A stretch of DNA of 64,000 bases from an uncultured Lentisphaeria bacterium (GTDB taxonomy: Bacteria > Verrucomicrobiota > Lentisphaeria > JABSQK01 > JAJFLO01): the NCBI GenBank assembly GCA_951812855.1, contig OX638337.1, positions 960,108 to 1,024,107 on the forward strand. Direction: 5' to 3'. A model generated the notes under the pieces. The model made no database searches, had not been told where the DNA came from, and saw nothing but the letters and a program-made list of their open reading frames with translations. Made by a program: the position numbers and the translations under genes. Below are positions 13,386-55,912 of this stretch, piece after piece (position 1 is the first letter of the stretch; every line of letters begins with the position of its first letter).

Positions 13386-13470
13386 GTACATCAGCACTGA
13401 TTTAAAATTTACGGCCATGGTAACTAATAATAATCAATCTTATATTGCGTTATAAATAAATAAAAATATT

Positions 13471-14046: not shown

Positions 14047-14212
14047 TATTATTTTGGGCATTCCCGACCCGGAATAAATCCTGGAATTAAATAACGCAGA
14101 AATTTGGCAATGTATCATTCCCGATATCGTGAATAACTGTGATTTACTTTAGTTTTAGAATCAGCATATCCTTTCTACTGACACATCGAATAGAAACAGC
14201 CAATATGCAATT

Positions 14213-14701
14213 ATGAGTACAACACATAATTTTCATTTTTCAGATTCACGTGATATTGGCACTGTTGACAATGATTCAATCGACCTGGCTGTTACCTCAC
14301 CACCCGACCCTGTGATGGAAATGTGGGATGACCTTTTTGTTACTCTTAATCCAGATATTAGCGATGTACTTTCAGATTTAAACGGCCGGTTAGCCTTTAG
14401 TAAAATGCATCATGAATTAGATAAAGTCTGGAGAGAATTGGATCGGGTCGTGAAACCAGGCGGATTTGTATGCATAAATATCGGTGACGCAACCTGAACA
14501 ATCGGTAATAATTTCAGCCTGTATTCCAACCATTCCAGCATCCTTATGTCAATGACATCACTCTCATTTTCGTTACTGCCGTTAATATTATGGAGAAAAT
14601 CGACAAATTCACCAACGAAATTTATGGGCTCGGGGCTGCTCCCGCCAGGGGCCTGTATAACACTTGAACATGGATACATATTAATCTTCAGAAAAAATTA
14701 A
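14213..14701 (+). pseudogene. DNA (N4/N6-adenine/cytosine) methyltransferase remnant with in-frame TGA and missing C-terminal SAM-binding region
   Basis: Frame continues through TGA at 14495-14497: …SIDLAVTSPPDP…VVKPGGFVCINIGDAT(TGA)TIGNNFSLYSNHSS…FMGSGLLPPGACITLEHGYILIFRKN(TAA); resembles N-terminal half of PF01555-type MTases (DPPY-like motif degraded to SPPD); no downstream FxGSG motif found. Confidence 0.5.
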
Positions 14702-15364
14702 AATATAATAGCCGGCACCATTGTTTTCCTGTTATGACACGACAGGGGCAGGAGATACTCATTAAGTACATTGAAACGATTCAGATCAGTGATAACGGCA
14801 GAATTAATGTGGACTACACACCATTTGAATTAAATAATAAGTATGCGGAAACAGAAGAATCAGTTAAACACAAATCACAAATTTTAGAGAACCGGCAATT
14901 ATCATTATTCCAGATCTATTCTCGGAGAATCTCAATAATTATTAATAAGCAGGTGTCGTCATATGTTCTGGGTCGTCGTTGCAGTATTTGGATGTATCTT
15001 TTTTATCGTAATTAATGCGTTCGTGTTTAATCCGCCGGAATCATTGCTCAAGTCTATACTTGAATGGAAAGAAAAATCAGTAGATGATGATCCTGGAACT
15101 GAAGACAGTAAAGAATAAAGTAAACAATACGTGATCTAAGAATCAAAACTTAAAACGGTAACACAGATTGATATGCCTCATGAACTCATTTTCAATCAAT
15201 CACATAAAAACCGAAATCAATGGTCGATATTTTATGAAACGATCTCTTCGGTGGACTTAAAAATTGATAATCGTAACAGGACAGTGTAAAATTAAATCTG
15301 ATAACTATTGAAAATCCGCTTTTTCAGAACAGGCTCCCGTTAAATCCTAATAATATAAAAAATT

Positions 15365-15868
15365 ATGTTTTTTAACTTATTATTACTATTTATTGTTGTA
15401 CCCATCATTGAATTATTGATTTTATTCAGAATTGGAGGACTGCTGGGTGCAATCAATACATTTACGGTGATAATTATTACCGGTGTTATTGGTGCATATC
15501 TGGCTAAACGACAGGGATTAATAATTCTTAAAAAAATTCAGACATCCATTGGAGAGGGCAAAATTCCTGCTGCCGAAGTTGTTGATGGTCTAATCATTCT
15601 CGTTGCCGGTGCAGTATTGTTAACGCCTGGATTTTTAACTGATATCACCGGCTTTTTACTCTTACTTCCTTTTGGGCGAAATCTGGTAACACTCTGGTTA
15701 ATAAAAAAGTTTACAACTATGATAAAATCGGGTAAAATTTCAGGGTCTGATTCCGGACACTTCGCGTTTAACATGACATCACATTCAGAGAAGGAAACGA
15801 TTCAGACTCACAAGAGCGATGTCATTGATGTAGAAAGCAGGCAGATTAATGACAACCTGATTGAATAA
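15365..15868 (+). CDS. fxsA: FxsA family cytoplasmic membrane protein
   Basis: 167-aa ORF; N-terminus …VPIIELLILFRIGGLLGAINTFTVIIITGVIGAYLAKRQG… matches FxsA family signature. Confidence 0.7.
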   Translation: MFFNLLLLFIVVPIIELLILFRIGGLLGAINTFTVIIITGVIGAYLAKRQGLIILKKIQTSIGEGKIPAAEVVDGLIILVAGAVLLTPGFLTDITGFLLLLPFGRNLVTLWLIKKFTTMIKSGKISGSDSGHFAFNMTSHSEKETIQTHKSDVIDVESRQINDNLIE

Positions 15869-15968
15869 TCCAAATCAGGTTTCAGGGATTCATTAACAAA
15901 GCTGCCGGATATGGTTTTCTTGCCCGGTTAGAATAATTCCAATAACGTCTTATACATGATCGTTGTGA

Positions 15969-16868
15969 TTGGTATTAAAGCACCTATTAATTTTAGTTTA
16001 TATGGCAAAGATACTTATAGCAGGATGTGGTAAAATCGGGATTAAATTGGGTTTAAAATTAGCCGAAGAAAACCATGACGTTTTTGGAGCAAGACGAAAT
16101 ATATCCGAAATTCCTGCTCCAATAATTCCTTTAACCGTTGATTTTTCAATACCGGATACACTGCCGGCCATTCCCGGGGCAATTGAATTTGTATATATTA
16201 TTTTAACCCCGGAAAAGTTTGATGATGACAGCTATAAACGAAGCTATGTTGAAGCGACGCAGAATATTTTGAAATATTTCGAAAAAAAGAAAGAGAAACC
16301 ACTTCACATCTTTTTTATATCAAGTACCAGTGTTTATGGACAGAAAAACGGCGAATGGGTTGATGAAAATTCAGAGACTGTTCCATTAGGTTTTTCAGGA
16401 ACGAGGATGCTCGAGGCAGAACAACTCATCACTCAGTCATCGATTGCGGGTGCCTCCTGTATTCGGTTTGGTGGTATTTATAGTAGTAAAAGAACAAGAC
16501 AAATCGATCGAATACAAAAAGGCATTTCAAAAAATTATCATGATTTAATAAATTATAAAAATTTAATTAATGAGGAAGATGCAGTAGGAATATTGCACCA
16601 TTTATTGGCAGAACCGAATAAGGAGACTCATTATCTGGCAGTTGATAATGAACCCGTTCAGGAATGCGATTTGTTAGAGTGGCTTCTGACAGAATTAAAG
16701 CTGTCTACAGCTCACGAATGCTCTGACCAATCTTTGTCCAGAAAGAGGAATTTAACTAATAAACGCTGTAATAATCAGAGAATTAGAAGATCAGGTTATA
16801 AATTTTCTTTCCCGACATACAAAGAAGGTTACAGGTCCATTATTGAAAAATTAGCTGCTTCAGCCTAG
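15969..16868 (+). CDS. NAD(P)-binding Rossmann-fold protein (SDR/epimerase-dehydratase family)
   Basis: 299-aa ORF; glycine-rich dinucleotide-binding motif MAKILIAGCGKIG near N-terminus (likely true start around 16002); …ISSTSVYG… typical of NAD-dependent epimerase family. Confidence 0.65.
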   Translation: MVLKHLLILVYMAKILIAGCGKIGIKLGLKLAEENHDVFGARRNISEIPAPIIPLTVDFSIPDTLPAIPGAIEFVYIILTPEKFDDDSYKRSYVEATQNILKYFEKKKEKPLHIFFISSTSVYGQKNGEWVDENSETVPLGFSGTRMLEAEQLITQSSIAGASCIRFGGIYSSKRTRQIDRIQKGISKNYHDLINYKNLINEEDAVGILHHLLAEPNKETHYLAVDNEPVQECDLLEWLLTELKLSTAHECSDQSLSRKRNLTNKRCNNQRIRRSGYKFSFPTYKEGYRSIIEKLAASA

Positions 16869-16986
16869 TTGACCGAAATGGTATTCTATTTGAAATGTTT
16901 GGTTTAATACAGCTGAGAGAGAATTAGATCTAATATTAAAAAAATAAAACGTATTAATTTTTGACTCTCAAACCAGAGAGTTGTTT

Positions 16987-17006
16987 AAAATAGCACAAAA
17001 CACTGT
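16987..17006. repeat. Copy 1 of 20-bp direct repeat AAAATAGCACAAAACACTGT in wza upstream spacer
   Basis: Seen directly; second copy at 17501-17520 differs at 2 adjacent positions (CA vs TG). Confidence 0.5.
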
Positions 17007-17105
17007 TTATATTTGGACTACTTTTGCTTTTGTTGATTTCTTAAAAAAATTCGCTTCCTGTTGATTTTATAATACGTTACAATTATTCAGGAATGTATTG
17101 GAATT

Positions 17106-17135
17106 TTAATTGCTGTAGTTTTAATTGCTGTAGTT
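17106..17135. repeat. Perfect tandem duplication of 15-mer TTAATTGCTGTAGTT
   Basis: Seen directly in sequence (two adjacent identical copies). Confidence 0.7.
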
Positions 17136-17500
17136 AGAAAAAAGCGTGCATGTCGATTGCAGCGTCTGACAGTGAGGGATATCTGGTGGTACGCATAGTC
17201 AGAACACAGGTCGGAGAGGTTTCTGAGTAACTTCCATCACCGCTGAAGGCATGGTCTGAAGAACAATAGACTGTCCTGGCGTCTCTGGGCAATGCTTCTA
17301 TTAATGAATGGCTCAATACTGTCAACATTAATTTTATGTGTATGAATGTACTTGCTCCCATTTACAAGACTAAAATTAAATCATTGGTTAGGTCATGGTA
17401 TACAAACAATAATCAGCAATTATTAAAATATAGAAAACGGGTAATAAATTCTATAACCCAAGACTGCTGACGGTGGTTAAAAATGCAGGATATTATTTTA

Positions 17501-17520
17501 AAAATAGTGCAAAACACTGT
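17501..17520. repeat. Copy 2 of 20-bp direct repeat AAAATAGTGCAAAACACTGT, ~90 bp upstream of wza start
   Basis: Seen directly; 514 bp downstream of copy 1, same orientation. Confidence 0.5.
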
Positions 17521-17607
17521 AAATTTAAATTAATCATTTGCTTTCCCTTAAATTTGATATACAGTTGTTCCTTTATTTTAATCTCCAACATGTCATCATA
17601 AATTTGT

Positions 17608-18516
17608 TTGAACAATGCAGTTCAAACGTCAACTGACCCAATATCAAAATGGGATTTTCGATTAAATATGTTACCTGTTAAATCTAAAAATTTACTTTTT
17701 ACTTTATTCACTCTATTCTCTCTATTCACTCTTCATCATTCACTTTTTGCTGAAGAGGATGATTATCAAATCGGCGGAAAAGATGTTCTCGAAGTTATAG
17801 TGTATGACGAACCGGATTTATCAAAAGAAGCGATTAGGGTATCTCTGGACGGTTATGTAAATTTCCCATTAATTGGAAAAGTTAATGTAAAAGGGTTGAC
17901 GTCCAGCCAAATTGAGGAAAAACTACAAAACCTGCTTGCTGACGGTTACATTCTTAGTCCACAAGTCTCTGTACTGGTAATGGAATACGGTAGCAGAAAG
18001 GTATTTGTTTTAGGTGCTGCAAAAAATACCGGAAGTTATGAACTTAGAGGAAAGACAACGTTATTAGAAATGATTTCAAAGGCAGGGGGCGTCGGTAAAA
18101 AAGCGGGAGATCACTTTCTTGTCCTTCGTGAAACTGAGCGTGGACCTGAGTCCATCCCGATTAACCGCAAAAAATTAATTGATGAAGGTGATTTATCACT
18201 AAATGTTATCTTAAAGAATAATGATACCGTTTATATACCCATTGCCGATGCAATTTACGTACTGGGCGAAGTTAAACGTCCTGGGACTTATGAACTTAGC
18301 GGCAATAATCGGACGGTGCTCTCTGCTATTACCCACGCTAGTGGCTTTACAAAAATAGCAGCTCCCGAAAAAACAAAAATAATTCGCGTCAACAATAAGG
18401 GTGTACAAGAAACGATCATTGTCGATCTTGAAGATGTTATGAAACGAGGTCAAAAATCCAAAGATATCAAACTCAAACCTGAAGATGTCATCATCGTTCC
18501 TCAAGGAATTTTTTAA
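17608..18516 (+). CDS. Polysaccharide export outer-membrane protein (Wza-like, short form)
   Basis: 302-aa ORF with hydrophobic N-terminus (likely start MLPVK at ~17668); polysaccharide-export/SLBB motifs (…YQIGGKDVLEVIVYDEPDLS…, …YVLGEVKRPGTYEL…). Confidence 0.8.
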   Translation: MNNAVQTSTDPISKWDFRLNMLPVKSKNLLFTLFTLFSLFTLHHSLFAEEDDYQIGGKDVLEVIVYDEPDLSKEAIRVSLDGYVNFPLIGKVNVKGLTSSQIEEKLQNLLADGYILSPQVSVLVMEYGSRKVFVLGAAKNTGSYELRGKTTLLEMISKAGGVGKKAGDHFLVLRETERGPESIPINRKKLIDEGDLSLNVILKNNDTVYIPIADAIYVLGEVKRPGTYELSGNNRTVLSAITHASGFTKIAAPEKTKIIRVNNKGVQETIIVDLEDVMKRGQKSKDIKLKPEDVIIVPQGIF

Positions 18517-18859
18517 TTTAAGCTATAAACTGTTTTAAAGTAAAATTTACGATTAAAACCCTGATAAGACTTATAACATTTATAAAATATCAGGTTTGAC
18601 TCAGTATCTCAATTATTCAATCATATATATATAGTGTATCAAATGTAGTAGGAATCATGTAAGCCAAAAGAGAATTTAATAAACTATTAAGCCATTTGTA
18701 CTGTTTACAAATGATTGCCTGATGCTCAAGTACACTTTTGTTAGTGCCAATCGATTTTAAAGTCCAAAGTCATACGTCCTACTTGCCGTATCGAAAACAT
18801 TTTTTTTTATGATTTTTCAATAAAATAAATTTAATATATAAAAAAATAAAATTCTTAAA

Positions 18860-21142
18860 ATGAGTGTAATACATCAAGAAAATTTAGAGACCTTTGAACA
18901 GAAAAAAGATATTGATCTTAAAGAATACCTCTCTGTTATCCGCAAACGCAGATGGGTTGTTTTTTTTATATCCCTGATTATAATAGTCAGTATTACGACA
19001 CACACTTTCAAAGTTCGCCCTGAATATCGGGCAGTAGTTCGCCTTCTTATAGACAAAGAGAATCCAAATATTGTTTCATTTGATGAAGTGTTGTCACTGG
19101 ACGGCAGAAGTGCTGAATATTATCAGACTCAGTTCAAGATTATTACAAGCCGAGGTGTTATTGAAAAAGTTATAACGCAATTAGATCTTGAAAAGGAATT
19201 TGATGAATTACAGGAAAGAGAGAAAGAAACTAAATCTCTCTCCAATATCCTGTCTGCACTTTCTGAGTCAGTAATTCAATTATTAACATCTATATTCAAA
19301 AAAGACCAAGACCAGTCAATTGTAGTTGACAAAACTGTTCCTTCTAGAATTGATAACCCTGCCCTTAGAAAGGAAGAATTACTCTTTCGCGAAATTATCG
19401 AACCATTAACAGTAACCCCCATAATGAACAGTCGCTTAGTTGATTTAGAATATACCGGGTACGATCCTCAAAGAATTACTGAAATTGTTAATGCAATTGC
19501 ACGGGTGTATATAGAGCAAAATTTAGAAAACAGGCTGTATGCCTCTGAAGACGCAGCTGTTTGGCTTGATGAACGATTAACTTCAATGCAGGGAAGAGTT
19601 GAAAATTCAGAACGAGCTCTACAAATTTATAGCAAAAATGCGGGAGTAACATCAATTGAAGATAAGCAGAAAACTCTGGATCAGGAATTATCAGAATTCA
19701 ATGCCGAGTTGATCAAGACTACGAAAAAAAGGGTCAAACTGGAGCAAAAATACAAAAACTCTCAGAATCCGGACCTGTCCAATTCTATTTTAGAAATTAT
19801 TAATAATGCCCTTATCCAAAATCTCAACAAGGACTTGTCTGTTTTAAGAGCCAAACAATCTGAACTGGAGGGAAAATACGGAACAAAGCATCCCAAAATG
19901 ATTCAGGTTGTTTTGAAAATAAATCAGATTAAAGAAATCATTGCCATTGAAGTAAAAAAAATACATGACAGCATTCAGAATAGATACCAGCTGGCTTTAA
20001 TCGAAGAACAATCATTAAAAGACAGATTACAAAAATTACGGGATGAATCTGAATTTCTTAATGAAAAATCAATTCGTTATGGAGTTCTCAAAAGAGAAGC
20101 GGTCAGCAACCGGCAAATGTATGAATTGTTACTAAAACGCTTAAAAGAAACGGATTTGTCCCAAGGATTACGTACAAATAATATCCGTATTATTGACAAA
20201 GCAAAACCCCCTTTAGAGCCGTTTAAACCAAATAAAAAACAAAATATACTGATCGGTATCATCTTTGGATTAATAAGTGGGCTCGGTTTGGCATTCTTGA
20301 TTGAATATTTAGACAATACCGTTAAGGAACCTGATGAAATAGCAATCAGATTCAACATTCCGTTTTTAGGATTGGTCGGCAATGACATAAACTCTGACAA
20401 GAAAACCTCAGTGGCAAATCCAGGTCTAACCTCAAAAATTAAACTAATTGCTTATAGAGATCCCGAATCAAATATTTCTGAAAGTCTGCGAACCATACGC
20501 ACTAATGTGATTTTTTCAGCTGATGGTGATAAGGATAAAGTATTTATGGTTACATCATCATTGCCTAAAGAAGGAAAAACAACAGTCGCGTCAAATCTTG
20601 CCGTTGTTATGGCATCACTTGGAGAAAGAGTACTGATTATTGATGCCGACCTTAGACGACCTTCCATTCATAAAGAATTAAATTGTATGAAATCACCCGG
20701 GCTATCATCCTATCTGATTCGTCAAAAAGAAATTGATGAAATTATAATAGATACTCAAATAAATAATTTATCAGTTGTTCCCAGCGGGCTTACACCTCCA
20801 AATCCTTCCGAATTGCTCAGTCATCCCCAAATGAAAGCACTATTAGACTATGCAAGGGAACATTACGATCGAGTTATTCTCGACACACCACCAGTTGCAT
20901 CTGTAACTGATCCTATTGTTATTAGTAGACAGGCTCACGCGGTTCTCTTTGTTATTCGTTTTGGTTTAGCACCCAGAGATGCAATATCTAAATCTATTCA
21001 ACAACTAAAACTGGTCAAAGCAAATATTATGGGTGCAGTGTTGAATGGTGTCGATTTCAGCAAGGATTCTTATTATTATCAGTATTATTATAAGCATTAC
21101 TACCATAAAGAAACTGATGGTGAAAAAGCAACCCCTTCCTGA
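18860..21142 (+). CDS. Wzc-like polysaccharide co-polymerase / BY-kinase (tyrosine autokinase)
   Basis: 760-aa ORF; N-terminal Wzz-type chain-length domain with TM segments, C-terminal P-loop ATPase (…VTSSLPKEGKTTVASNLA…, …LIIDADLRRP…), C-terminal tyrosine cluster DSYYYQYYYKHYYH. Confidence 0.85.
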   Translation: MSVIHQENLETFEQKKDIDLKEYLSVIRKRRWVVFFISLIIIVSITTHTFKVRPEYRAVVRLLIDKENPNIVSFDEVLSLDGRSAEYYQTQFKIITSRGVIEKVITQLDLEKEFDELQEREKETKSLSNILSALSESVIQLLTSIFKKDQDQSIVVDKTVPSRIDNPALRKEELLFREIIEPLTVTPIMNSRLVDLEYTGYDPQRITEIVNAIARVYIEQNLENRLYASEDAAVWLDERLTSMQGRVENSERALQIYSKNAGVTSIEDKQKTLDQELSEFNAELIKTTKKRVKLEQKYKNSQNPDLSNSILEIINNALIQNLNKDLSVLRAKQSELEGKYGTKHPKMIQVVLKINQIKEIIAIEVKKIHDSIQNRYQLALIEEQSLKDRLQKLRDESEFLNEKSIRYGVLKREAVSNRQMYELLLKRLKETDLSQGLRTNNIRIIDKAKPPLEPFKPNKKQNILIGIIFGLISGLGLAFLIEYLDNTVKEPDEIAIRFNIPFLGLVGNDINSDKKTSVANPGLTSKIKLIAYRDPESNISESLRTIRTNVIFSADGDKDKVFMVTSSLPKEGKTTVASNLAVVMASLGERVLIIDADLRRPSIHKELNCMKSPGLSSYLIRQKEIDEIIIDTQINNLSVVPSGLTPPNPSELLSHPQMKALLDYAREHYDRVILDTPPVASVTDPIVISRQAHAVLFVIRFGLAPRDAISKSIQQLKLVKANIMGAVLNGVDFSKDSYYYQYYYKHYYHKETDGEKATPS

Positions 21143-21500
21143 CTTTGACCTGCCGGGACTGCAGCTCAAGTGCTGTCCATTAAATAACTGATCTGTCATA
21201 AAATCCATCACCGAGACTTTGGCTTTGTAACTTTGTTACCCAATCCCTCAGTACAGTATAGTTGATAAATGTCCTTGTGATTGACCGCCCATGTCCGACA
21301 AATGCTTACTTGAAATATTACTCGAAGAAAATAAACCAAATCACACCTCTATTTCAGCCGCTATCCGCGATGGGATCCAGCCGAGATTAAAGCCGCACGC
21401 CCATCTCTCGATACATTCACCCCGCCCTCCTGGCAAACTGAAAAGGCAATCCTTCTGAACATTTATTCTCAACTGACGGGTGTTGTGCCGATGACAGGCA

Positions 21501-36690: not shown

Positions 36691-37449
36691 TTGAATCTGA
36701 ATCGTATGAAAAATTGGTACAAAGACGCCTTTACTGAAGATTATATTCATATTTATCAACACCGCAACCAAACAGAAGCGACAATTCTAATCGACCGGTT
36801 ATTGAAATTTTTGAATTTACCAGGCGATTCATTGTGTTTAGATTTATGCTGTGGATTTGGTCGTCATTTATCATATTTATTAGATCAGGGGATAAATACA
36901 TATGGATTAGATTTATCACAGCCACTACTGGAAAATGCGGTTGAAATAAGGCAATTATCCGGTCGTGTCATTCTTGGAGATATGAGACACATTCCCTTTA
37001 GTAAGTCATTTGATTTTGTTTTCTCCTTTTTCTCCAGTTTTGGTTATTTTCACAGGGATTCAGAAAATATACAAGTTTTACAGGAGATTAATCGAGTGTT
37101 AAAACCAAAGGGAAGATTCTTAATCGATTATCTTAATGCTGAGCATGTTAAAGATAATTTGAGAGAACATGACCTTCGTTGCTATGATAATTTTACTGTA
37201 AAGCAGAAGCGCTGGATAAATTCAGATTTAAATACGGTAGAAAAAGAGTTAATCATTGAAGATGTCAAGGGTGAACGATCTTATTTTGAGAGTGTTAAAC
37301 TCTATGATCTGGTAGATTTCAGGCAACTTTGTTCAGCCTCGAATTTGAAAATCACCCATGAATTTGGAGATGCCATTGGAAAACCGTTTGACATCGGATC
37401 AAGTCGTTTGATCATGGTGGGGGGAAAAATTGACAGTCACCTTTCATAA
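36691..37449 (+). CDS. Class I SAM-dependent methyltransferase (translationally coupled to bshC)
   Basis: 252-aa ORF; SAM-binding motif …LDLCCGFGRHLSYLL…GLDLS…; stop overlaps bshC start by 20 nt. Confidence 0.75.
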   Translation: MNLNRMKNWYKDAFTEDYIHIYQHRNQTEATILIDRLLKFLNLPGDSLCLDLCCGFGRHLSYLLDQGINTYGLDLSQPLLENAVEIRQLSGRVILGDMRHIPFSKSFDFVFSFFSSFGYFHRDSENIQVLQEINRVLKPKGRFLIDYLNAEHVKDNLREHDLRCYDNFTVKQKRWINSDLNTVEKELIIEDVKGERSYFESVKLYDLVDFRQLCSASNLKITHEFGDAIGKPFDIGSSRLIMVGGKIDSHLS

Positions 37450-38995
37450 TTTCAATTTGGTAGATGATAACCTTTATAATGCCAAAATAACGTCCGCTTT
37501 TCTGGAAACAGATCCTTATTCATCAGATTCATTGTCCAGGAATCATCAATACGCGTCATCACGGTCTGACATCGACCGCGAATTTTTGTCGGAGACTTTT
37601 TCTGAATATAATAATGTCATCGGTAATGACTCCACGGCACTTTATAATTGCAGTCGAATAAGAAATGCAGGTTCAATGGCAGTGGTTACAGGCCAGCAGG
37701 CCGGGATGCTGACCGGTCCATTATACACGATATATAAGATTATTACGGCTGTTAATTTTGCAAAGCATTGTGAACATAAGTTTAAGACACCTGTCATCCC
37801 GGTTTTTTGGAACGCAACCGAAGATCATGATTTAAGTGAAGTCGAATCATTTCATTATCCTGGCAAGAAGTGGTCTGCCACTTTTTCACAAAACGGAGTT
37901 GCAGCACAATTTTTAAACGTAAATCCGGCATGTTCGAATCTTGTTTACAATTTCCTGGATTCAATCTCAGAAATAAATCATAAAGATGAAATTACATCTA
38001 TACTGACAAATGAGTTTGAAAAATACGGAGAATTTTCATCGTCAGTGACAGCCCGGTTATTTAAGGGGACGGGTCTGGTCATTATTGAACCAAAATTATT
38101 GCGTAAAAAGTCAACTCCATTTTTTCAAAAGTGCATCAGCCATTGTCATGATATCAGAAATGGATTGGAGCAGGCCGGTGTTCTCTTACAGCAAAATAAA
38201 ATTAAGCCTGCATTTCAGGTGTCCGGGGATTCAACAGGACTTTTTTATATAACAGATGACGGGATTCGATATCAAATAAAAAATAGGAAAAATGACTTTT
38301 TTATTAATAACAAATGGGTTTCGGAATCTTCAGCGTTACAACTTATTGCCGAGTCTTCTTCAAATTTTTCTACCGGTGCATACCTGAGACCCGTTTTGCA
38401 GTCAAAAATTATTCCTGCTCTGGCATATATAGCAGGTCCAGCGGAATATAGGTATCATTTACAACTGAAAAATATATTTCACATGTTTGATGTTAAAATG
38501 CCTGTAATTCTACCCAGAAATCATGCAACCATTTTGACAAAAAAAGAATTGAAAGTTGCGAATAAACTGGGTTTGAAAATTCATGATTATTTTGAAGGTC
38601 CTCAAAAATTTTATCATCAGCACAAGTTATATAAAAAAGGAAGAGACAGTTTTAAGAATGCTGAACAGGCCTTGATAGACATCGCTGAGAATTTGGCTCA
38701 GGACATACCGGATTTAGTCAATGAGAATGTATTAAATCAGTTTAAATCAAACTTGGGTATTCAATTAGACAAACTTGAAAAACGCGTTGCGAAAGAAGTC
38801 TTGAGACGCGAGGGAATTGACAATGCCAGAATTGATCGGTTTTATAATTGTATTTTCCCGAAAAAATCTATGCAGGAACGATGGATTAATATCTTTTATT
38901 TTATTGAACAAAATGGTTTATCCATTATCAGTGATTTGTTGAAAATTATCGATCCTTTAGAACGGCGACATTATGTTGTTTATACAGACCATTAG
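37430..38995 (+). CDS. bshC: Bacillithiol biosynthesis cysteine-adding enzyme BshC
   Basis: 521-aa ORF; conserved BshC block …AVVTGQQAGMLTGPLYTIYKIITAVNFAK…PVIPVFWNATEDHDL… and …AYIAGPAEYRY…; followed by bshB and bshA. Confidence 0.8.
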   Translation: MTVTFHNFNLVDDNLYNAKITSAFLETDPYSSDSLSRNHQYASSRSDIDREFLSETFSEYNNVIGNDSTALYNCSRIRNAGSMAVVTGQQAGMLTGPLYTIYKIITAVNFAKHCEHKFKTPVIPVFWNATEDHDLSEVESFHYPGKKWSATFSQNGVAAQFLNVNPACSNLVYNFLDSISEINHKDEITSILTNEFEKYGEFSSSVTARLFKGTGLVIIEPKLLRKKSTPFFQKCISHCHDIRNGLEQAGVLLQQNKIKPAFQVSGDSTGLFYITDDGIRYQIKNRKNDFFINNKWVSESSALQLIAESSSNFSTGAYLRPVLQSKIIPALAYIAGPAEYRYHLQLKNIFHMFDVKMPVILPRNHATILTKKELKVANKLGLKIHDYFEGPQKFYHQHKLYKKGRDSFKNAEQALIDIAENLAQDIPDLVNENVLNQFKSNLGIQLDKLEKRVAKEVLRREGIDNARIDRFYNCIFPKKSMQERWINIFYFIEQNGLSIISDLLKIIDPLERRHYVVYTDH

Positions 38996-39080
38996 GTCCA
39001 TATCAGCAAATCATAGATTTAACGTTGTGAAGTCTGACTGAAATGAAGAATGTAATACAACCAGAAAGAGTTGATACATT

Positions 39081-39791
39081 ATGGAATTGGATTATTTATT
39101 CTTGGCGGCCCACCCTGATGACGCAGAGCTATATTGTGGGGGATCAATTATTAAATTCAGGGAGAATGGTTATAGAGTGGGTATCCTGGATTTTACCAGA
39201 GGTGAAGCGGCAACTTCGGGTACAGTGGAAGACCGTGATCGCGAAACATTAACATCAAATGCAGTCCTCCAGCCAGATGTCAGGCACAACCTTGGACTTG
39301 TTGACAGTGGGTTGAGGGATGACGGGAATACGAGAATTCTGGTTGTTAATTATATTCGCAAGTATAGAGTTAAAGTATTGATTGCACCTCATGGACCATG
39401 CAGACATCCTGACCATACTGCTGTATCGACGCTGGCGAAAAATGTTTTTTTCTTTTCAGGTGCGGGCAAGTTCCCGTCTGATCATGAACGCTGGCAACCG
39501 CTGCAGCTTATTTACCATATGGAATTCCAGGATGTAAGACCGTCGTTTGTCGTTGATATTTCAGAACAGTTTGAACGAAAGATAAAGACAATTGAAGCAT
39601 ATAGTACCCAGTTCTATACGGATAGTAATCAAAATGAAAAGACACTGATCGGTTCCCATCGTTTTCGAGAGTTGATGATATCTCGGTTTAAGTATTATGG
39701 AAATCTTATAAATTGTGATTATGGAGAACCCTATATTCTTGACGAAACTCTAAGAATAGATGATCCTTTAAAGAACAAATTGGAAGGATAG
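39081..39791 (+). CDS. bshB: N-acetylglucosaminyl-malate deacetylase BshB (LmbE/PIG-L family)
   Basis: 236-aa ORF; LmbE-type metal-binding motif …LFLAAHPDDAELYCGGSI… and …HPDHTAV…. Confidence 0.8.
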   Translation: MELDYLFLAAHPDDAELYCGGSIIKFRENGYRVGILDFTRGEAATSGTVEDRDRETLTSNAVLQPDVRHNLGLVDSGLRDDGNTRILVVNYIRKYRVKVLIAPHGPCRHPDHTAVSTLAKNVFFFSGAGKFPSDHERWQPLQLIYHMEFQDVRPSFVVDISEQFERKIKTIEAYSTQFYTDSNQNEKTLIGSHRFRELMISRFKYYGNLINCDYGEPYILDETLRIDDPLKNKLEG

Positions 39792-39800
39792 GGTGAACGC

Positions 39801-40916
39801 ATGAATATCGGTATTGTTTGTTATCCATCAATTGGCGGGTCGGGCCTGATTGCAACTGAACTTGGAGTTAACCTCGCGAAACTGGACCATCAAATACATT
39901 TTATTTCATACTCAGTACCGTTCAAACTGTCAGTTTTCGACCGGAATGTCAACTTTCACTCTGTTGATCCCATTAACTATCCCTTATTTAATCAAACGTT
40001 ATACACATTTTCACTGACCGCAAAAATTATTGATGTCGTCAGAGAATATAAACTCGATCTTGTCCATGCACATTATTCGATACCCCATTCGCTATGTGCA
40101 CATTTAGCCAGGGAAGTCAGCGGGTGTGATTTTAAAATTATTACAACATTGCATGGTACAGACGTAACAATTGTCGGCCAAAATAAACCCTTATTTTCTT
40201 TGAATAAATATGGGATAGAGCAAAGTGATATGGTGACAACTGTATCACAATTCCAGAAAGAACATACGAATCGGTATATTGGTATTGCCAATGAAATAGA
40301 GGTGATTTATAATTTTGTTGATGCGGATATCTTCAGACCTGTTCCAAAAGGAAAATGCAGGGAATCACTGGCCTCGCCCGATGAAAAAATAATCATGCAC
40401 ATTTCAAATTTTCGGTCGCCGAAAGATCCCGAAGGAGTCATTAATATATTTCATGAAGTTTTGAAAAAAATCGAAGCGAAACTTGTCTTGATTGGTGACG
40501 GTCCGGGAATCGGAGAAATTAAAACATTATGTAAAGAGTTTAAAATCTGTGATAATGTTTGTTTCCTGGGAAAAATCGACAATGTCGAAAATCTGATACC
40601 TATGGCTGATTGTATATTACAACCCAGTTTAAGAGAATCATTCGGAATGGGTTTATTAGAGGCAATGTCCTGTGAAGTTCCTACGGTCAGCAGTAATGTC
40701 GATGGAATTCCTGAAGTAGTCGTTGATGGAGAAACTGGACTCATGGCTAATCCGGGAGATTATAAGACATTATCTGAGCATGTTATTAAAATTTGTTCGT
40801 CGGTGGATTGGGCAAAAAAGATGGGGAAAAACGGACGTCGGGTTGCTATTGAAAGATTCAACAAAGACAAAATCATCAGTGAATACCTAAAGTGTTATGA
40901 AAATGTGTTGAGCTGA
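39801..40916 (+). CDS. bshA: N-acetyl-alpha-D-glucosaminyl L-malate synthase BshA (GT4 glycosyltransferase)
   Basis: 371-aa ORF; BshA-type N-terminus MNIGIVCYPSIGGSGLIATELGVNLAKLDHQIHFISYSVPFKL and GT4 C-terminal motif …ESFGMGLLEAMSCEVPTVSSNVDGIPEVV…. Confidence 0.85.
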   Translation: MNIGIVCYPSIGGSGLIATELGVNLAKLDHQIHFISYSVPFKLSVFDRNVNFHSVDPINYPLFNQTLYTFSLTAKIIDVVREYKLDLVHAHYSIPHSLCAHLAREVSGCDFKIITTLHGTDVTIVGQNKPLFSLNKYGIEQSDMVTTVSQFQKEHTNRYIGIANEIEVIYNFVDADIFRPVPKGKCRESLASPDEKIIMHISNFRSPKDPEGVINIFHEVLKKIEAKLVLIGDGPGIGEIKTLCKEFKICDNVCFLGKIDNVENLIPMADCILQPSLRESFGMGLLEAMSCEVPTVSSNVDGIPEVVVDGETGLMANPGDYKTLSEHVIKICSSVDWAKKMGKNGRRVAIERFNKDKIISEYLKCYENVLS

Positions 40917-41543: not shown

Positions 41544-42368
41544 ATGCCAAAACCATACATGTTAACAAATGATCAGAAAATGCAGTTTGCCGCAATTTAT
41601 GTCTTGGAATATATGATCAATAAACCGCATGAATTTCCATTATTTCTGGACAGGAATGATCAGGATCTTGAATCCATTCTTGAATGGCTTCTGATTAAAG
41701 AGATGGTCCAAATCAAAAAAAATGAATCCTATTCTCCAACTGACAAAGGGCGGGAGAGTTTGACAAAATTTATGAATCGGTACACAGAATTTTTAAATGT
41801 ATTTGATATATATTGTGCGGTTGATCTTAGCACCGGAGAATTTGCATTTGAGTCGTATTTCGATTTTGAAGACAAAGCATCCTGGGGAAAATATCTCCAT
41901 GAAGATCGATGGGAGGACCTGCGGGTTGCTGTAGCTGACTATAAGAAATTGAACCCGGTTGAAATTGTTTTTATGAGTTTTATAAGTGAAAATCGATTCG
42001 GCAGGGATAAAACCGGATGGCAATTTGATTTATTATTGGGAAGTGTATGGGATGAGATATTGGAAATTTGCAATACTGCAGTCCAATGGGATGAATTAGG
42101 GTTCGAAGATGAAGAAGGCGACGTTCCCGCTGAAGCGGTTATTGAAGATGTCATTGTCCAGGGAGCAGAACATATCCTTGCTCTCCAAAAGGAAGAGTTG
42201 AACTGTAATCCAAAATATTTTAGTGATTATGATGAAAATTTTACAACGTCATCGAATGGTGAACTGAATAAGGGTCGGGTTGTAATAAACGAATATTCCG
42301 TAGATTACTATGATCCTTATCTTGATCCGGGTTATGTCTCGCCAATATGGTTTGGATTTTGGTTTTAA
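41544..42368 (+). CDS. Hypothetical protein (possible N-terminal winged-helix region, acidic C-terminal half)
   Basis: 274-aa ORF, no recognised catalytic motif; first of three co-directional genes ending with pspA. Confidence 0.45.
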   Translation: MPKPYMLTNDQKMQFAAIYVLEYMINKPHEFPLFLDRNDQDLESILEWLLIKEMVQIKKNESYSPTDKGRESLTKFMNRYTEFLNVFDIYCAVDLSTGEFAFESYFDFEDKASWGKYLHEDRWEDLRVAVADYKKLNPVEIVFMSFISENRFGRDKTGWQFDLLLGSVWDEILEICNTAVQWDELGFEDEEGDVPAEAVIEDVIVQGAEHILALQKEELNCNPKYFSDYDENFTTSSNGELNKGRVVINEYSVDYYDPYLDPGYVSPIWFGFWF

Positions 42369-43923: not shown

Positions 43924-44322
43924 ATGAATGATTCTATAGACTTAACTTCTCAAAATCCAACTTGCCCTTTAGGAAGACAGATACTGGTAGATTTATATGA
44001 TTGTGATACAGACTGTCTTAATCATGTCGAGGTAATAAAAACAATACTGATTGAGGTTGCTGATTCAATAAATACAAATGTTATTGATTCATCATTTCAT
44101 GAATTTTCACCCTGTGGTGTAAGTGGCGTACTTATTATTTCTGAAAGCCATATTGCTATTCATACATGGCCGGAACTCGGCTTTGCAGCGGTTGATGTAT
44201 TTACATGTGGAGATAGACTCAACCCTGATTTAATTCAATCTGAATTCGGTCGTCGGTTTGGAGCGAAGCGTTCCGAAAAGCAGATAATTTATCGTGGAAA
44301 TGAACGAATGAAACAGTCATAA
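43924..44322 (+). CDS. speH: S-adenosylmethionine decarboxylase proenzyme (small pyruvoyl-dependent class)
   Basis: 132-aa ORF; self-cleavage/pyruvoyl site motif …LIISESHIAIHTWPE…. Confidence 0.8.
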   Translation: MNDSIDLTSQNPTCPLGRQILVDLYDCDTDCLNHVEVIKTILIEVADSINTNVIDSSFHEFSPCGVSGVLIISESHIAIHTWPELGFAAVDVFTCGDRLNPDLIQSEFGRRFGAKRSEKQIIYRGNERMKQS

Positions 44323-44370
44323 ACTCTTCCCTGTGTTGTAGTGTGAATTTAATAATTTTCTGATATTACA

Positions 44371-45726
44371 ATGGTTAACGTCGATAAAATAACTAAATAT
44401 TGTTTAGGAAATTTCAGTAATTTAAAAAATCAGATGATTTCTCAGGATCATGCATCAGATTTTGAAATTGATTTTGAAATTACGTACATATTATTCCTGG
44501 CATCACATATTGATGGAGATCTTACGTATAGGGAAAATCAGTTTTCCGAAAGCGTTGGGGACTGTCTTGGCTGGTCTGAATTCTATGCGTCACTGCTGAC
44601 TTCCAGGGTACTTAAACAGCCATCATACCAAATAGAGCATTTAAAAATTGCTCATAAGCATAAGAAATTTGGTTATACGCTGTTTCATCTCGCCTATTGC
44701 ATGGTGCTTATTGACGGTGATTTAAATGTAGACGAGCGGGCGTTTATCGGCAACTTAAGAGATTCTCTTTTTGGAGATTCCAAAGAAATCTGTGAAGAAA
44801 TAGAACTGAATATCAATGATGTATTTGAGGGGAAAATGAACAGAGTTCCAACCGAATTTGATCTAAATGATTTCAGTGGTATTACAAACAGTGTTGATGA
44901 TGAAACGGTCAGTTTGAAAGAATGTATGGAGGAACTTGACAGTCTGGTTGGATTAGATCATGTCAAAGATGAAATAAAAAAATTAATCAGCTATTTGAAT
45001 ATTCAAAAAAAACGGCGTGAATTGGACTTGTCATGTACAAATTTATCGTTACACATGGTATTTACCGGAAACCCGGGCACAGGAAAAACAACCGTCGCAC
45101 GATTAATCGCTAAAATTTATAATGCATTGGGTTTTTTAGATAAAGGGCATTTAGTAGAAACTGATCGGAGCGGGCTTGTTGGGCAGTATGTTGGCCATAC
45201 TGAAATTAAGACATCTGAAGTGATAAACAAAGCACTTGACGGGATCCTGTTCATTGATGAAGCATACAGTTTGCATAAAGATTCAGAAAGTGATTTTGGT
45301 GAAGAGGCAATAGACACTCTGGTTAAAAGGTTGGAAGATCATCGTGACCGTTTAGTTGTCATTGCAGCTGGATATGAGGGGGAAATGCATGAGTTTATTG
45401 ACTCTAATCCAGGTATGCGGTCACGCTTTAACACCTATATAAATTTTTCAAATTATTCCTCAAAAGAATTGTTTGAGATATTCGAATTAATGAGTAAAGA
45501 AAATGATTATCTTCTTGATAAGAGTGCTGCCTCAAAGTTGTTACAAGTCTTTGAATCCAAAGTTGAAAATGCTGGAACAGGATTTGGTAATGGTCGATTC
45601 GCACGCAATTTATTTGAACAAATTCTGCGAAATCAGGCCCTTCGGCTGAGCGAAGTCAATAACCTTGCCAAAGAGGACTTGATTACAATTAAAGCCCAGG
45701 ATATACAATCTGCAGTTTTAGATTAA
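44371..45726 (+). CDS. AAA+ ATPase (CbbX/SpoVK-like) with N-terminal TerB-like tandem motifs
   Basis: 451-aa ORF; Walker A FTGNPGTGKTTVARLIA, Walker B ILFIDEAYSL; N-terminal repeats …HIDGDLTYRENQF… and …LIDGDLNVDERAFI… resembling TerB/DjlA-N type motifs. Confidence 0.75.
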   Translation: MVNVDKITKYCLGNFSNLKNQMISQDHASDFEIDFEITYILFLASHIDGDLTYRENQFSESVGDCLGWSEFYASLLTSRVLKQPSYQIEHLKIAHKHKKFGYTLFHLAYCMVLIDGDLNVDERAFIGNLRDSLFGDSKEICEEIELNINDVFEGKMNRVPTEFDLNDFSGITNSVDDETVSLKECMEELDSLVGLDHVKDEIKKLISYLNIQKKRRELDLSCTNLSLHMVFTGNPGTGKTTVARLIAKIYNALGFLDKGHLVETDRSGLVGQYVGHTEIKTSEVINKALDGILFIDEAYSLHKDSESDFGEEAIDTLVKRLEDHRDRLVVIAAGYEGEMHEFIDSNPGMRSRFNTYINFSNYSSKELFEIFELMSKENDYLLDKSAASKLLQVFESKVENAGTGFGNGRFARNLFEQILRNQALRLSEVNNLAKEDLITIKAQDIQSAVLD

Positions 45727-53966: not shown

Positions 53967-54380
53967 TCACTTCAAACTTAAAGAATAATCACCCTTCCTT
54001 TTTTCCCATACAAATTTAGGATCGATAACAGGATCATAATTTCCCGGTGCAGAAGAAATAAAAAACGCAGTATCATAAACGCCTGCACCTGTGCGTGCTG
54101 CGACCATAACAAGCCCATTAAAAAGTCCAACAGTGGGTGTTGCCAGGAGTCCATCGTTTTTAAACGTTAACCAAAGCTGCCTGGGTAATTCTATCCAACC
54201 CGTTGCAATGTTAACGATACCTCGAAAGAATTTTTTATTCATTGGATCAAAAACTGATTCAAATGGAATCCCGTCAAAATTTTTAGATGGAGAGTCTGTC
54301 TCCTGTGCTCTTAGATGTGAAACATTTACCAGCGACAAAATAATAACGAAAATATACAAAGTACTTAGATAATTTTTCAT
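53967..54380 (-). CDS. Small secreted protein with signal peptide (possibly exosortase-system-associated family; tentative)
   Basis: 137-aa ORF; N-terminal signal peptide (…IFVIILSLVNVSHLRAQ); motif …RGIVNIATGWIELPRQ…AARTGAGVYD… recalled as typical of a small exosortase-associated protein family; not verified. Confidence 0.45.
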   Translation of the reverse strand: MKNYLSTLYIFVIILSLVNVSHLRAQETDSPSKNFDGIPFESVFDPMNKKFFRGIVNIATGWIELPRQLWLTFKNDGLLATPTVGLFNGLVMVAARTGAGVYDTAFFISSAPGNYDPVIDPKFVWEKRKGDYSLSLK

Positions 54381-54681
54381 GCGTTTATTCCTGTCGGTAA
54401 TTACGTTTTGGATTTAGATATAGAACTGTTTAGTGGCTGTCATAAATATTATCATCAATTAAATGATTGCAAATCACTTTGACATAGATGCCCTGCTTCT
54501 TCAATGAGAGACAATCCTGTTTTATATAAATTCATCCATAAAATGATCAATTTTAGTGTTTTTTACACTTCACTAAATTCAATTAAGCATACGGTGTCCC
54601 AGGTGAATTATTCGCAGGTAAAATTTATACGTGAACAGGGGTTCTGGAAGTTTGAGCAGGAAGTTGCCGGTACAGGAATTA

Positions 54682-54822
54682 ATATTTTTTCTCTTCCTTG
54701 AATTCAACTTCACTCTGTTGTATGCCAAAGTGTTTGCAAGTGTATTGAATAAATTCCTGTTCATCTGAATTTAACTCACCGTCAATCATAGATACTTCAA
54801 TAATGTTTACCAATTTGTTTTG
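54682..54822 (-). pseudogene. TerB-like domain fragment (paralog-like remnant of the N-terminus of the 44371..45726 ATPase)
   Basis: Stop-to-stop minus-strand frame QNKLVNIIEVSMIDGELNSDEQEFIQYTCKHFGIQQSEVEFKEEKKY; the …MIDGELNSDEQEFI… block parallels …VLIDGDLNVDERAFI… in the TerB-AAA protein; only ~45 codons. Confidence 0.3.
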
Positions 54823-55165
54823 TTACGAAAATTATTTAGGATAGAAACGGGAATGTCCATGGTTGTTTATATTCCGGATGTCGTTTTTGTTTTCTTTATA
54901 AATTTATAAAGTTTGTACAAGTAAGCCGTCGTTCTGTTTATTTTATTTTCATTTGACTTACCTTAATTTAATAGAGATAAATGGGTAATAAGAATAATTT
55001 GAAATCTTTACAAGAATTAGCAGAGTACTTAATATTAATTTTCTTAAAATCTATTCGACAGCTCATGATTTCGTATGAGAGCTGACGGTGTTGAACACGA
55101 TTAATGACTGAATACTCCATGACATATTTGGGCATGTATTTTTATTTACACAGCAGCTTTTTTAC

Positions 55166-55912
55166 TTGATTGATCTGACTGCAGAAATTTTAACCTTAAA
55201 GGAAACTCAAATGTATTGTGTCAGTGACTGGTATTTATCTTTAGGGCTTTATACATTTCCAACTCTATTTATTCAGTTGAATAATGATGAGATTGAATTA
55301 ATCAGAAATGTTGAAGATTGTTCTAATTCTTCCAGAAATATTATCAGAAAAATTGACAGTGCCGTAACCAGTTTCCCCGGAAGCAGTTTTATACATGTAG
55401 ACTATTGTGCCCCAACCGATTCTTCGTTATTTCAGAAGGGAAAAGGAGCGATTAATTCTGGTAAAACCGGCTGGAATATCCTGTCTCAAAGTGAAAAAGT
55501 AAAAAAGGCATTCGCCGAAGATAAAACAAAAAGGATTTGTGTTCATCCGTACAGAAGAATAGATCATGCCCGCGAATTCAGAGTTTTCACTAAAGCAGGT
55601 ACGGTTGTGGGAGTGTCTCAAAAAGATGTCGCTAAACATCATCCTAAACTTCATAAACGTCGGGACTTTATCCAAAGGAAAATTTACAAGTTTATGAAAC
55701 ATATCAATAGTCAATTGGAAACCGAAGACATCATTGTAGACGTTTATCTTACTTCTCAGGATGAATTAATGATTCTGGATACCCACTCATGGGGCGGGGC
55801 AACAAATCCGTTATTATTTCGCGACTGGGATCGTGACTGGAGTAAAAATTCTGGATTAGTTTTAGTTGAAAAACCCGAAAAGTTAGGGGGGAACGTCTCT
55901 GTTTCGTTTTAG
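55166..55912 (+). CDS. Cdc123/D123-family ATP-grasp protein (eukaryote-type)
   Basis: 248-aa ORF; three blocks closely parallel eukaryotic CDC123 as recalled: …GSSFIHVDYCAPTDSS… (cf. SVFPKLNWSAPRDA), …REFRVFTKAGTVVGVSQKD… (cf. AEFRCFVKENKLIGISQRD), …IIVDVYLTSQDELMILDTHSWGGATNPLLFRDWD… (cf. FVFDIYRDSRGKVWLIDFNPFGEVTDSLLFTWEE). Confidence 0.7.
   Translation: MIDLTAEILTLKETQMYCVSDWYLSLGLYTFPTLFIQLNNDEIELIRNVEDCSNSSRNIIRKIDSAVTSFPGSSFIHVDYCAPTDSSLFQKGKGAINSGKTGWNILSQSEKVKKAFAEDKTKRICVHPYRRIDHAREFRVFTKAGTVVGVSQKDVAKHHPKLHKRRDFIQRKIYKFMKHINSQLETEDIIVDVYLTSQDELMILDTHSWGGATNPLLFRDWDRDWSKNSGLVLVEKPEKLGGNVSVSF

Follow-up and report, generated by a model that had tools for sequence, protein, structure and literature searches.

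The subject of this study is a gene at positions 44371..45726 (+) of a 64 kb stretch of DNA from an uncultured Lentisphaeria bacterium; the whole stretch that was analysed is called the window below. The gene encodes a protein of 451 amino acids (aa), in which an N-terminal domain that probably belongs to the TerB superfamily is fused to an AAA+ ATPase core of the CbbX/SpoVK/EccA subgroup, and it closes an operon that also encodes the envelope-stress protein PspA. Taken singly, the AAA clade, the TerB fold and the operon were already known; the fusion of the first two, and the place of this fusion in the operon, appear to be undescribed in the literature searched.

We propose that the protein would serve as an ATP-driven remodeller of the PspA envelope-stress module. 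As a composite, this reading is held tentatively, at slightly less than an even chance. Its parts differ in strength: we are highly confident of what the protein is and where its gene lies, and the part which makes PspA the client is a possibility that we consider somewhat doubtful.

Domain architecture and family

The start codon (ATG, 44371) is the first in its stop-to-stop frame, which opens at 44356, and M1 of the window ATPase is also the alignment start for five orthologues. Orthologues are 61-80% identical to the window ATPase over the full length, and P0001, encoded on a contig of 1.94 Mb, is the identical protein. The features of the gene are given below; invariance there refers to the 21 full-length family members over which conservation was counted, and P0149 is a more distant relative that is described further on.

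44371..45726, + strand: TerB-like/AAA+ ATPase gene, stop codon included, 451 aa (open reading frame list)
44371..44826, + strand: N-terminal all-helical domain (aa 1-152), putatively divergent TerB superfamily, from the structure model, Foldseek, hhalign and profile matches of relatives
44506..44535, + strand: acidic motif 1, HIDGDLTYRE (aa 46-55), seen in the sequence and aligned with HADREVNRDE of P0149
44707..44736, + strand: acidic motif 2, LIDGDLNVDE (aa 113-122), seen in the sequence and aligned with WSDGELHEDE of P0149 and SDGNFDDDE of TerB 2jxu
44827..44910, + strand: variable linker (aa 153-180), of low conservation and low model confidence
44911..45723, + strand: AAA+ module of the CbbX/SpoVK/EccA clade (aa 181-451), from Pfam, NCBIfam and the alignment with CbbX 3zuh
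45067..45090, + strand: Walker A, GNPGTGKT (aa 233-240); G233, G236, T237, G238, K239 and T240 invariant
45175..45201, + strand: segment LVGQYVGHT (aa 269-277), counterpart of LVGQYIGHT in CbbX 3zuh; L269, G275 and T277 invariant, Q272 kept in 20/21
45244..45261, + strand: Walker B, ILFIDE (aa 292-297); L293, F294, D296 and E297 invariant
45406..45429, + strand: arginine-finger region, NPGMRSRF (aa 346-353), counterpart of NPGFRSRI in CbbX; N346, P347, G348, S351, R352 and F353 invariant
45523..45705, + strand: AAA_lid_6 (aa 385-445; PF17866, E 2.4e-18) with the sensor-2-type FGNGRFARN (aa 405-413); F405-R409, R412 and N413 invariant

In the AAA+ part, the Pfam model AAA matched aa 229-360 (E 2.3e-19, 70.6 bits, cut-off 21.2) and AAA_lid_6 matched with 66.4 bits (cut-off 24.3), so that the canonical AAA+ core described in an earlier note on this DNA, which was made from the letters alone, is borne out. 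Among the NCBIfam models, SpoVK (TIGR02881; E 7e-94, 313.7 bits), EccA (E 7e-82, 275.7 bits) and CbbX (TIGR02880; E 4e-76, 256.1 bits) all scored below their equivalog cut-offs of 422.95, 466.65 and 459.25, and only profile positions 262-552 of 557 of EccA were aligned. The label 'CbbX/SpoVK-type' given in that note is right as the name of a clade. Among solved structures, the Rubisco activase CbbX comes closest (3zuh, E 2e-61, aa 179-447), and EccA1 is next (9lur, E 4e-54). Walker A and B, R352, R409/R412 and the segment LVGQYVGHT, whose aligned stretch we take to be the pore-loop region of CbbX, are invariant or nearly so in the 21 members, and hence the ATPase should be active. Judged by its sequence, the core is a classic AAA+ module of the CbbX/SpoVK/EccA subgroup with intact catalytic motifs.

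Orthology with each of these three families was considered and rejected. In addition to the missed cut-offs, the neighbours of the window gene are AdoMet decarboxylase, PspA, CesT-like and hemL genes and no Rubisco gene was seen in related loci (CbbX); the relatives are Verrucomicrobiota, not endospore formers (SpoVK); and the N-terminal part of EccA is unmatched, only the C-terminal AAA half being aligned. Membership of the Vps4/CdvC group was rejected as well, because no MIT match was obtained in the Pfam scans and the NCBIfam CdvC score (E 2.8e-4, 19.9 bits) is far below its cut-off of 650; the likeness to that group lies in layout alone.

The EccA matches, together with a CesT/Tir-family chaperone encoded in the operon, would suit a secretion chaperone ATPase of EccA type that prepares export substrates with the CesT-like chaperone. 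However, the score falls far short of the EccA equivalog cut-off, no secretion-system genes were seen in related loci, and the CesT-like type found in this operon has been described as a partner of PspA and not as a type III secretion chaperone (PMC11237479). This explanation is very improbable.

The N-terminal domain was recognised through its family and not through the window protein itself, so that the TerB-like N-terminus claimed in the earlier note stands at the level of the family only. The condition named in that note as refuting it, an N-terminal region without a match to TerB-like profiles, does apply to the window protein taken by itself. In an alignment of 27 N-termini (A4), the Pfam model TerB was matched by 8/27 relatives (best E 3.7e-5), DUF533 by 5/27 and the NCBIfam co-chaperone DjlA by 5/27 (best E 2.9e-5); the N-domain of DjlA is a TerB-type domain. 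One family member spans positions 7-109 of the 118 in the TerB profile at 23.4 bits, just under the cut-off of 24.4. When A4 was compared by hhalign with P0149, a tandem canonical TerB/DUF533 protein over both Pfam cut-offs (TerB 45.5 bits, DUF533 54.7 bits), a probability of 95.3% was obtained (E 2e-8, 106 columns), with both acidic motifs in register. No homologue was returned when the second TerB domain of P0149 served as query. The best match of the family profile among PDB sequences was TerB 2jxu, with E 0.072, at motif 2.

Structure prediction may point in the same direction. The AlphaFold model of the N-domain, built from 27 sequences, has nine helices, with a predicted local distance difference test score (pLDDT) of 92.6 and a predicted template modelling score (pTM) of 0.88. 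Its top Foldseek match in the PDB was 2h5n (PG1108; probability 0.94, template modelling score 0.49/0.63) and the second was 2ou3 ('tellurite resistance protein of COG3793'; probability 0.75, score 0.51/0.53), both with weak E-values (~0.8-0.9), and every unrelated match had a probability of 0.11 or less. Residues ~25-135 would thus form one divergent TerB-superfamily domain holding both motifs.

The open reading frame and its two DGDL-xxx-E motifs are present as described in the earlier note (aa 48-55 and 115-122). The motifs had been called two repeats; they do not mark separate repeat domains, and an arrangement of two tandem TerB or repeat domains was rejected, since both fall within a single TerB-domain alignment. 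Within the motifs, all five close orthologues keep D48, G49, E55, D115, G116, D121 and E122. In the wider family D48/G49 are kept in 19/21 full-length members and motif 2 is more variable, and the most conserved positions of the N-domain are F31, E36, W68 and P84.

Between the two domains, the linker shows an identity to relatives of 0-39%, versus 51-86% in the AAA part; its length varies and its pLDDT is low in both the full-length and the N-domain AlphaFold models. No transmembrane segment was found in the window ATPase by hydropathy (maximum KD19 = 1.13), from which the protein is expected to be soluble.

The size of the family was estimated by searching a profile of the N-terminus of the five orthologues against 1.84 billion (1.84e9) representative proteins at E<=0.001. 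Only 29 clusters matched, most of them 430-477 aa long with the same layout and the rest short or truncated, with P0149 as the weakest match. Thus, the TerB-like/AAA+ fusion is a discrete and rare family. Its closest AAA relatives by sequence are double-AAA proteins of ~620-700 aa from Lentisphaeria and Kiritimatiellia, which have no such N-domain. For one of these, P0033 (Kiritimatiellia), the genomic context was examined: glycoside-hydrolase genes stand on one side, restriction-modification (R-M) and nSTAND genes on the other, and PspA linkage is lacking. The idea that the whole AAA clade is linked to PspA was therefore dropped, and this relative suggests that it is the N-domain which tracks the operon.

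Two observations on these relatives are recorded in their own right. P0033 (L013/L014, 8001-17275) adjoins a DNA methylase, a SacI-like restriction enzyme, RadC and a 1298-aa nSTAND NTPase; this may be a defence island and differs from the setting of the window gene. P0109 (785 aa) belongs to the same SpoVK/CbbX-type AAA clade; its N-terminus is annotated as Pfam TerD (PF02342), which makes it a second, different fusion of a Ter domain with an AAA+ ATPase.

The PspA operon in the window and in relatives

Related loci (numbered with L) were compared for gene order; a search for them with a 5-sequence alignment found 2 genomes. Eleven loci are informative, namely the window, L001, L003, L004, L005, L006, L008, L009, L010, L011 and L012, the contig of L007 being too short. 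L003 is from a Verrucomicrobia metagenome-assembled genome, L004 from Puniceicoccaceae bacterium K14 (Verrucomicrobiota, Opitutia), and the other relatives are on metagenomic contigs. In eight of the 11 (the window, L001, L003, L004, L005, L008, L009 and L011), the PspA gene lies directly upstream of the ATPase gene, or only an S-adenosylmethionine (AdoMet) decarboxylase gene lies between them, which places the ATPase gene at the 3' end of the operon in these loci. The decarboxylase gene is immediately upstream of the ATPase gene in the window, L003, L004, L005, L008, L009 and L011.

In the window, the ATPase gene is the last of five genes on the same strand. It is convergent with hemL, and upstream there are genes for bacillithiol. 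The four genes that precede it are as follows.

41544..42368, + strand: operon protein of 274 aa, no Pfam match; 58% identical to a 269-aa protein of L004, 62% to a 275-aa protein of L001, 51% in L011
42548..42961, + strand: CesT/Tir-like chaperone, 137 aa (CesT_Tir_1 E 5e-6, CesT E 7e-4); kept in L001, L003, L004, L008 and L011
42995..43684, + strand: PspA/IM30 family protein, 229 aa (PspA_IM30 E 1e-40); upstream of the ATPase gene in 8 loci
43924..44322, + strand: AdoMet decarboxylase of SpeD/SpeH type, 132 aa (AdoMet_dc E 4e-35); 48 bp from the ATPase gene

The CesT/Tir-like and PspA genes adjoin on one strand, 33 bp apart. The relatives show longer versions of this arrangement. L004 has a tight array of ten genes in the order SpeE-like (574 aa), 294-aa protein, DUF350, 269-aa protein, K+ channel with RCK, CesT-like, PspA, AdoMet decarboxylase, TerB/AAA and ABC_ATPase; L008 has DUF4178, DUF350, SpeE-like, K+ channel, CesT-like, PspA, AdoMet decarboxylase and TerB/AAA; and L011 has the same core, with stop and start codons overlapping. 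L001 reads DUF350, 275-aa protein, K+ channel, CesT-like, PspA and TerB/AAA, without the decarboxylase, and the short contigs L005 and L009 hold the C-terminus of PspA, AdoMet decarboxylase and TerB/AAA. SpeE-like, DUF350 and K+ channel genes thus occur among L001, L004, L008 and L011 (SpeE-like in L004, L008 and L011). In L005, L009 and L011, neighbouring genes overlap by 4 bp, a sign that they are co-translated as parts of one operon.

Taken together, the operon is [SpeE-like]-[DUF350/YjfL]-274-aa protein-[K+ channel]-CesT/Tir-like-PspA-AdoMet decarboxylase-TerB/AAA, where the genes in brackets are missing from the window. No SpeE-like, DUF350/YjfL, K+ channel or ABC_ATPase homologue was found anywhere in the 64 kb, so that the window carries a reduced version of the operon with AdoMet decarboxylase as its sole polyamine gene. 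This decarboxylase keeps the sequence SESH, which we take to be the self-processing site of the enzyme. It is encoded in the window without a nearby aminopropyltransferase.

The same type of operon has been described by Ravi et al. 2024 (PMC11237479), with a CesT/Tir-PspA dyad (YjfI/YjfJ-like) whose partners are a spermine-synthase-like gene fused to 7 transmembrane segments (7TM), YjfL/DUF350, DUF4178, a ligand-gated K+ channel and a linkage to AdoMet decarboxylase.

The nearness of the decarboxylase brings in the main rival of our reading, a CbbX-style activase or chaperone that would act on the pyruvoyl-dependent AdoMet decarboxylase or on the membrane-fused SpeE-like aminopropyltransferase, much as inhibited Rubisco is remodelled by CbbX, with the acidic domain sensing the level of polyamine or cation. 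It draws on the decarboxylase gene standing immediately upstream in 7 loci (with the 4-bp overlaps in three of them), on the SpeE-like genes of L004, L008 and L011, and on a Rubisco activase being the closest solved relative of the core. However, in L001 the AAA gene still comes after PspA although that locus contains neither a decarboxylase nor a SpeE-like gene, the window has no SpeE-like gene, and L006, L010 and L012 have no polyamine genes. Moreover, we know of no AdoMet decarboxylase that needs an activase. We consider this rival improbable, yet the strongest of those weighed here.

Several observations on the operon and its surroundings are added. The conserved operon protein without Pfam match (244-275 aa, 51-62% identity) has a fixed place between DUF350 and the K+ channel; its coordinates in the relatives are given here.

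L001, 4537-5364: operon protein without Pfam match
L004, 6447-7256: operon protein without Pfam match
L011, 6614-7348: operon protein without Pfam match

In L004, an MRB1590-like ABC-class ATPase (11366-13102; PF09818, PF20446 and PF21117) follows 27 bp downstream of the TerB/AAA gene, and the end of that operon thus holds two ATPases. In L011, the TerB/AAA gene is directly followed by a second cluster of phage-shock-protein (PSP) type (11508-21359), with Phage_CP76, two PspA paralogues, three proteins without known function, and a protein longer than 1700 aa that has DUF3686/DUF7902 and weak AAA matches. Directly upstream of the PspA operon in the window lies a bacillithiol biosynthesis cluster (37430-40916), with bshC (Rossmann-like_BshC and CC_BshC), a PIG-L deacetylase (bshB-like) and a GT4 glycosyltransferase (bshA-like). 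An Rfam scan of 40.9-45.9 kb, including the 239-bp gap between PspA and speD, found no RNA element.

Proposed function and its rivals

In our model, the window ATPase would be a soluble protein remodeller with a single AAA+ module, which, judging from its CbbX relatives, should form a hexameric ring. The task of the TerB-like domain and its acidic motifs would be to capture, beneath the membrane, a target or ligand that could be a metal, a polyamine cation or a partner protein, and the ring would then unfold or disassemble the client via its pore. The most likely client would be PspA assemblies or CesT-bound PspA. The ATPase would be the partner that consumes energy in the PspA module, and its TerB domain would act as adaptor or sensor.

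PspA, Vipp1 and ESCRT-III are now viewed as one superfamily of membrane-remodelling polymers, and in archaea and eukaryotes the AAA+ ATPase Vps4 recycles the ESCRT-III-type polymer. For most bacterial PspA systems we know of no such motor, and the window ATPase is a concrete candidate for the missing PspA motor in one lineage. At the same time, the poorly understood TerB fold gains a defined partner, the AAA+ ring, and a setting, the PspA/polyamine envelope-stress module. If the linkage to the operon is incidental, the protein is merely another uncharacterised AAA+ domain architecture.

Published work on PspA leaves room for such a partner. In PMC11237479, the AAA+ partners of PspA (Vps4-like ATPases, double-AAA proteins with an inactive first domain, and coiled-coil/beta-propeller AAA+ proteins) are argued to point to ESCRT-like, ATP-dependent membrane remodelling, and how AAA-less PspA homologues regulate their assembly is stated to be unknown. 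The main text of that paper, taken without its supplement, contains 0 occurrences of TerB, tellurite, SpoVK and CbbX. Also in favour of the model, a TerC-TerB complex is reported to have links with the inner-membrane stress response and with ATPase/chaperone activity (summarised in PMC12054061).

A more specific version of the model was also considered, in which the protein is a dedicated motor for disassembly of PspA polymers, that is, an analogue of Vps4 which arose independently from a CbbX/SpoVK-type ATPase, with the TerB fold as an MIT-like adaptor. We regard it as rather unlikely. Such a motor might be gated by polyamines or cations made or imported by the same operon.

Several points weigh against the proposed role in the PspA module. 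No Pfam model, TerB (PF05099) included, matched aa 1-184 even at E<=10, and the whole protein had no TerB match at E<=1; the TerB assignment is one of apparent remote homology, for which Foldseek gave weak E-values. Conservation is lower in motif 2 than in motif 1, which makes binding of a ligand or metal by the motifs uncertain. The full-length AlphaFold model is poor (pLDDT 48, 5 sequences) and the arrangement of the domains cannot be read from it. With regard to context, the tightest neighbour of the ATPase gene is usually AdoMet decarboxylase and not PspA, and three members stand in unrelated housekeeping surroundings: L006 beside ThiF and a 169-aa protein, L010 with kdsB-pyrG upstream and Lon downstream, and L012 beside a PfkB kinase. 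Finally, most of the loci that bear the operon are probably from related organisms of the PVC group, and the linkage may in part reflect shared descent.

In another explanation, the protein would be a general cytosolic AAA+ chaperone without a dedicated role in the PspA system, which stands last in the operon only through an accident of gene order in its lineage. The 3/11 loci with unrelated neighbours would then be expected, and the operon works without an AAA+ gene in most of the bacteria described in PMC11237479; a scan of 40.9-45.9 kb of the window for promoters and terminators likewise found nothing above the shuffled expectation. On the other side, the gene order has persisted although the proteins share just 43-50% identity overall and 22-37% in the N-domain, stop codons overlap with start codons in L005, L009 and L011, and P0033, the AAA relative without the N-domain whose context was examined, lacks the linkage to PspA. 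An accident of gene order is a minor possibility, a little less probable in our judgement than the activase.

In the earlier note, a role in stress or phage response was put forward. The stress part agrees with the PspA operon, which that note had not seen, and the phage part was not upheld by the defence-system and viral searches. TerB has been described as a ligand-binding component of the Ter stress/phage-exclusion system (PMC7824862). A Ter-type or anti-phage defence ATPase, in which the TerB sensor would trigger an AAA+ effector upon attack by phage or xenobiotics, would fit this background, as well as the TerD domain of P0109 in the same AAA clade and weak PADLOC-DB v2 matches to IetA (E 3e-11, 41 bits) and TRIP13. 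These PADLOC matches, however, cover the generic AAA core only, and neither the N-domain nor any of the four operon partners gave a meaningful PADLOC match. The NCBIfam model IteA scored 28.6 bits versus a cut-off of 510, a search of 2.9 million viral contigs turned up no relative of the N-domain, and the genes around that of the ATPase serve housekeeping or envelope stress. No TerC, TerD/TerZ/TerE or TelA gene was seen beside the ATPase gene, either in the window or in 10 related loci, where no search was aimed at TerC; the window has no TerD-like sequence, and TerC and TerZ were not searched for there. We regard a defence function as highly unlikely, and the role in the PspA module remains our preferred reading.

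A TerB-like fragment in the window and relation to known systems

About 9 kb beyond the ATPase gene, the window holds one further TerB-like sequence.

54679..54822, - strand: short TerB motif-2-like frame (stop-to-stop frame 54682..54822; 44-aa open reading frame 54679..54813), matched by Pfam TerB below its cut-off and by the family profile

The stop-to-stop frame contains MIDGELNSDEQEFI, and the 44-aa open reading frame reads ...VSMIDGELNSDEQEFIQY... in its interior. The fragment matches Pfam TerB (PF05099) with E 0.0015 and 19.2 bits (cut-off 24.4) over profile positions 81-114 of 118, and the family N-domain profile with E 0.0014. Among 1818 six-frame segments, it is the only frame besides the ATPase gene to match this profile (next best 0.29), and hence more than a chance resemblance; when it is aligned with aa 113-126 of the ATPase (motif 2), 9/14 residues are identical. 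It lies in a gene-free stretch of ~790 bp (54380-55170) with 31% GC, versus a window mean of 38%, with stops in all frames, and this stretch looks like decayed coding sequence. The frames upstream of the fragment are all broken by stops, and the remainder of a TerB domain was not found there. The fragment is plausibly the tail of a decayed TerB-domain gene. The earlier note had called it a decayed paralogous TerB fragment; the TerB-like match is real and the paralogy is not established, since with only ~25 aligned residues a paralogue of the ATPase and a remnant of an unrelated canonical TerB gene are indistinguishable.

Taken across the loci studied here, the operon agrees with those of PMC11237479 in its genes and in their arrangement (SpeE-like, DUF350, K+ channel with RCK, CesT-like, PspA and AdoMet decarboxylase, with DUF4178 in L008), the window having the reduced version. 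It differs in its last gene, as the main text of that paper mentions no TerB-like or SpoVK/CbbX-type ATPase.

The N-domain resembles the TerB superfamily (PF05099, DUF533 and the N-domain of DjlA; 2jxu, 2h5n and 2ou3) in being all-helical in its model and of similar size, and in its two acidic motifs of the form (D/S)DG-x4-5-(D)E. In contrast to members of the superfamily, the window protein itself matches no TerB model, and the most conserved residues of its family are not the acidic motifs taken as defining TerB. Moreover, TerB stands alone and other members are fused to a J-domain, whereas the domain in the window is fused to an AAA+ ATPase; unlike DjlA, this ATPase has no transmembrane anchor.

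In the ATPase part, CbbX (3zuh/3syl), SpoVK and the C-terminus of EccA align end to end with the window protein over ~270 aa of ATPase and lid, with Walker A/B, NPGxRSR, the GNGR/ANAR sensor-2 region and LVGQY(V/I)GHT in common; as in CbbX, there is one AAA module. Unlike CbbX and SpoVK, the window ATPase has a TerB-like N-domain of ~150 aa and a linker, and unlike EccA it has the TerB-like domain in place of the EccA N-terminal part. Its gene also does not adjoin Rubisco, sporulation or ESX genes.

With Vps4/CdvC acting on ESCRT-III, the analogy would be functional only. The window protein differs from them in having no MIT domain and in its CbbX/SpoVK-type AAA core. It shares with them the sequence of an N-terminal helical adaptor, a flexible linker and one classic-clade AAA module, and, as with Vps4, it is encoded beside a protein of the ESCRT-III superfamily, here PspA.

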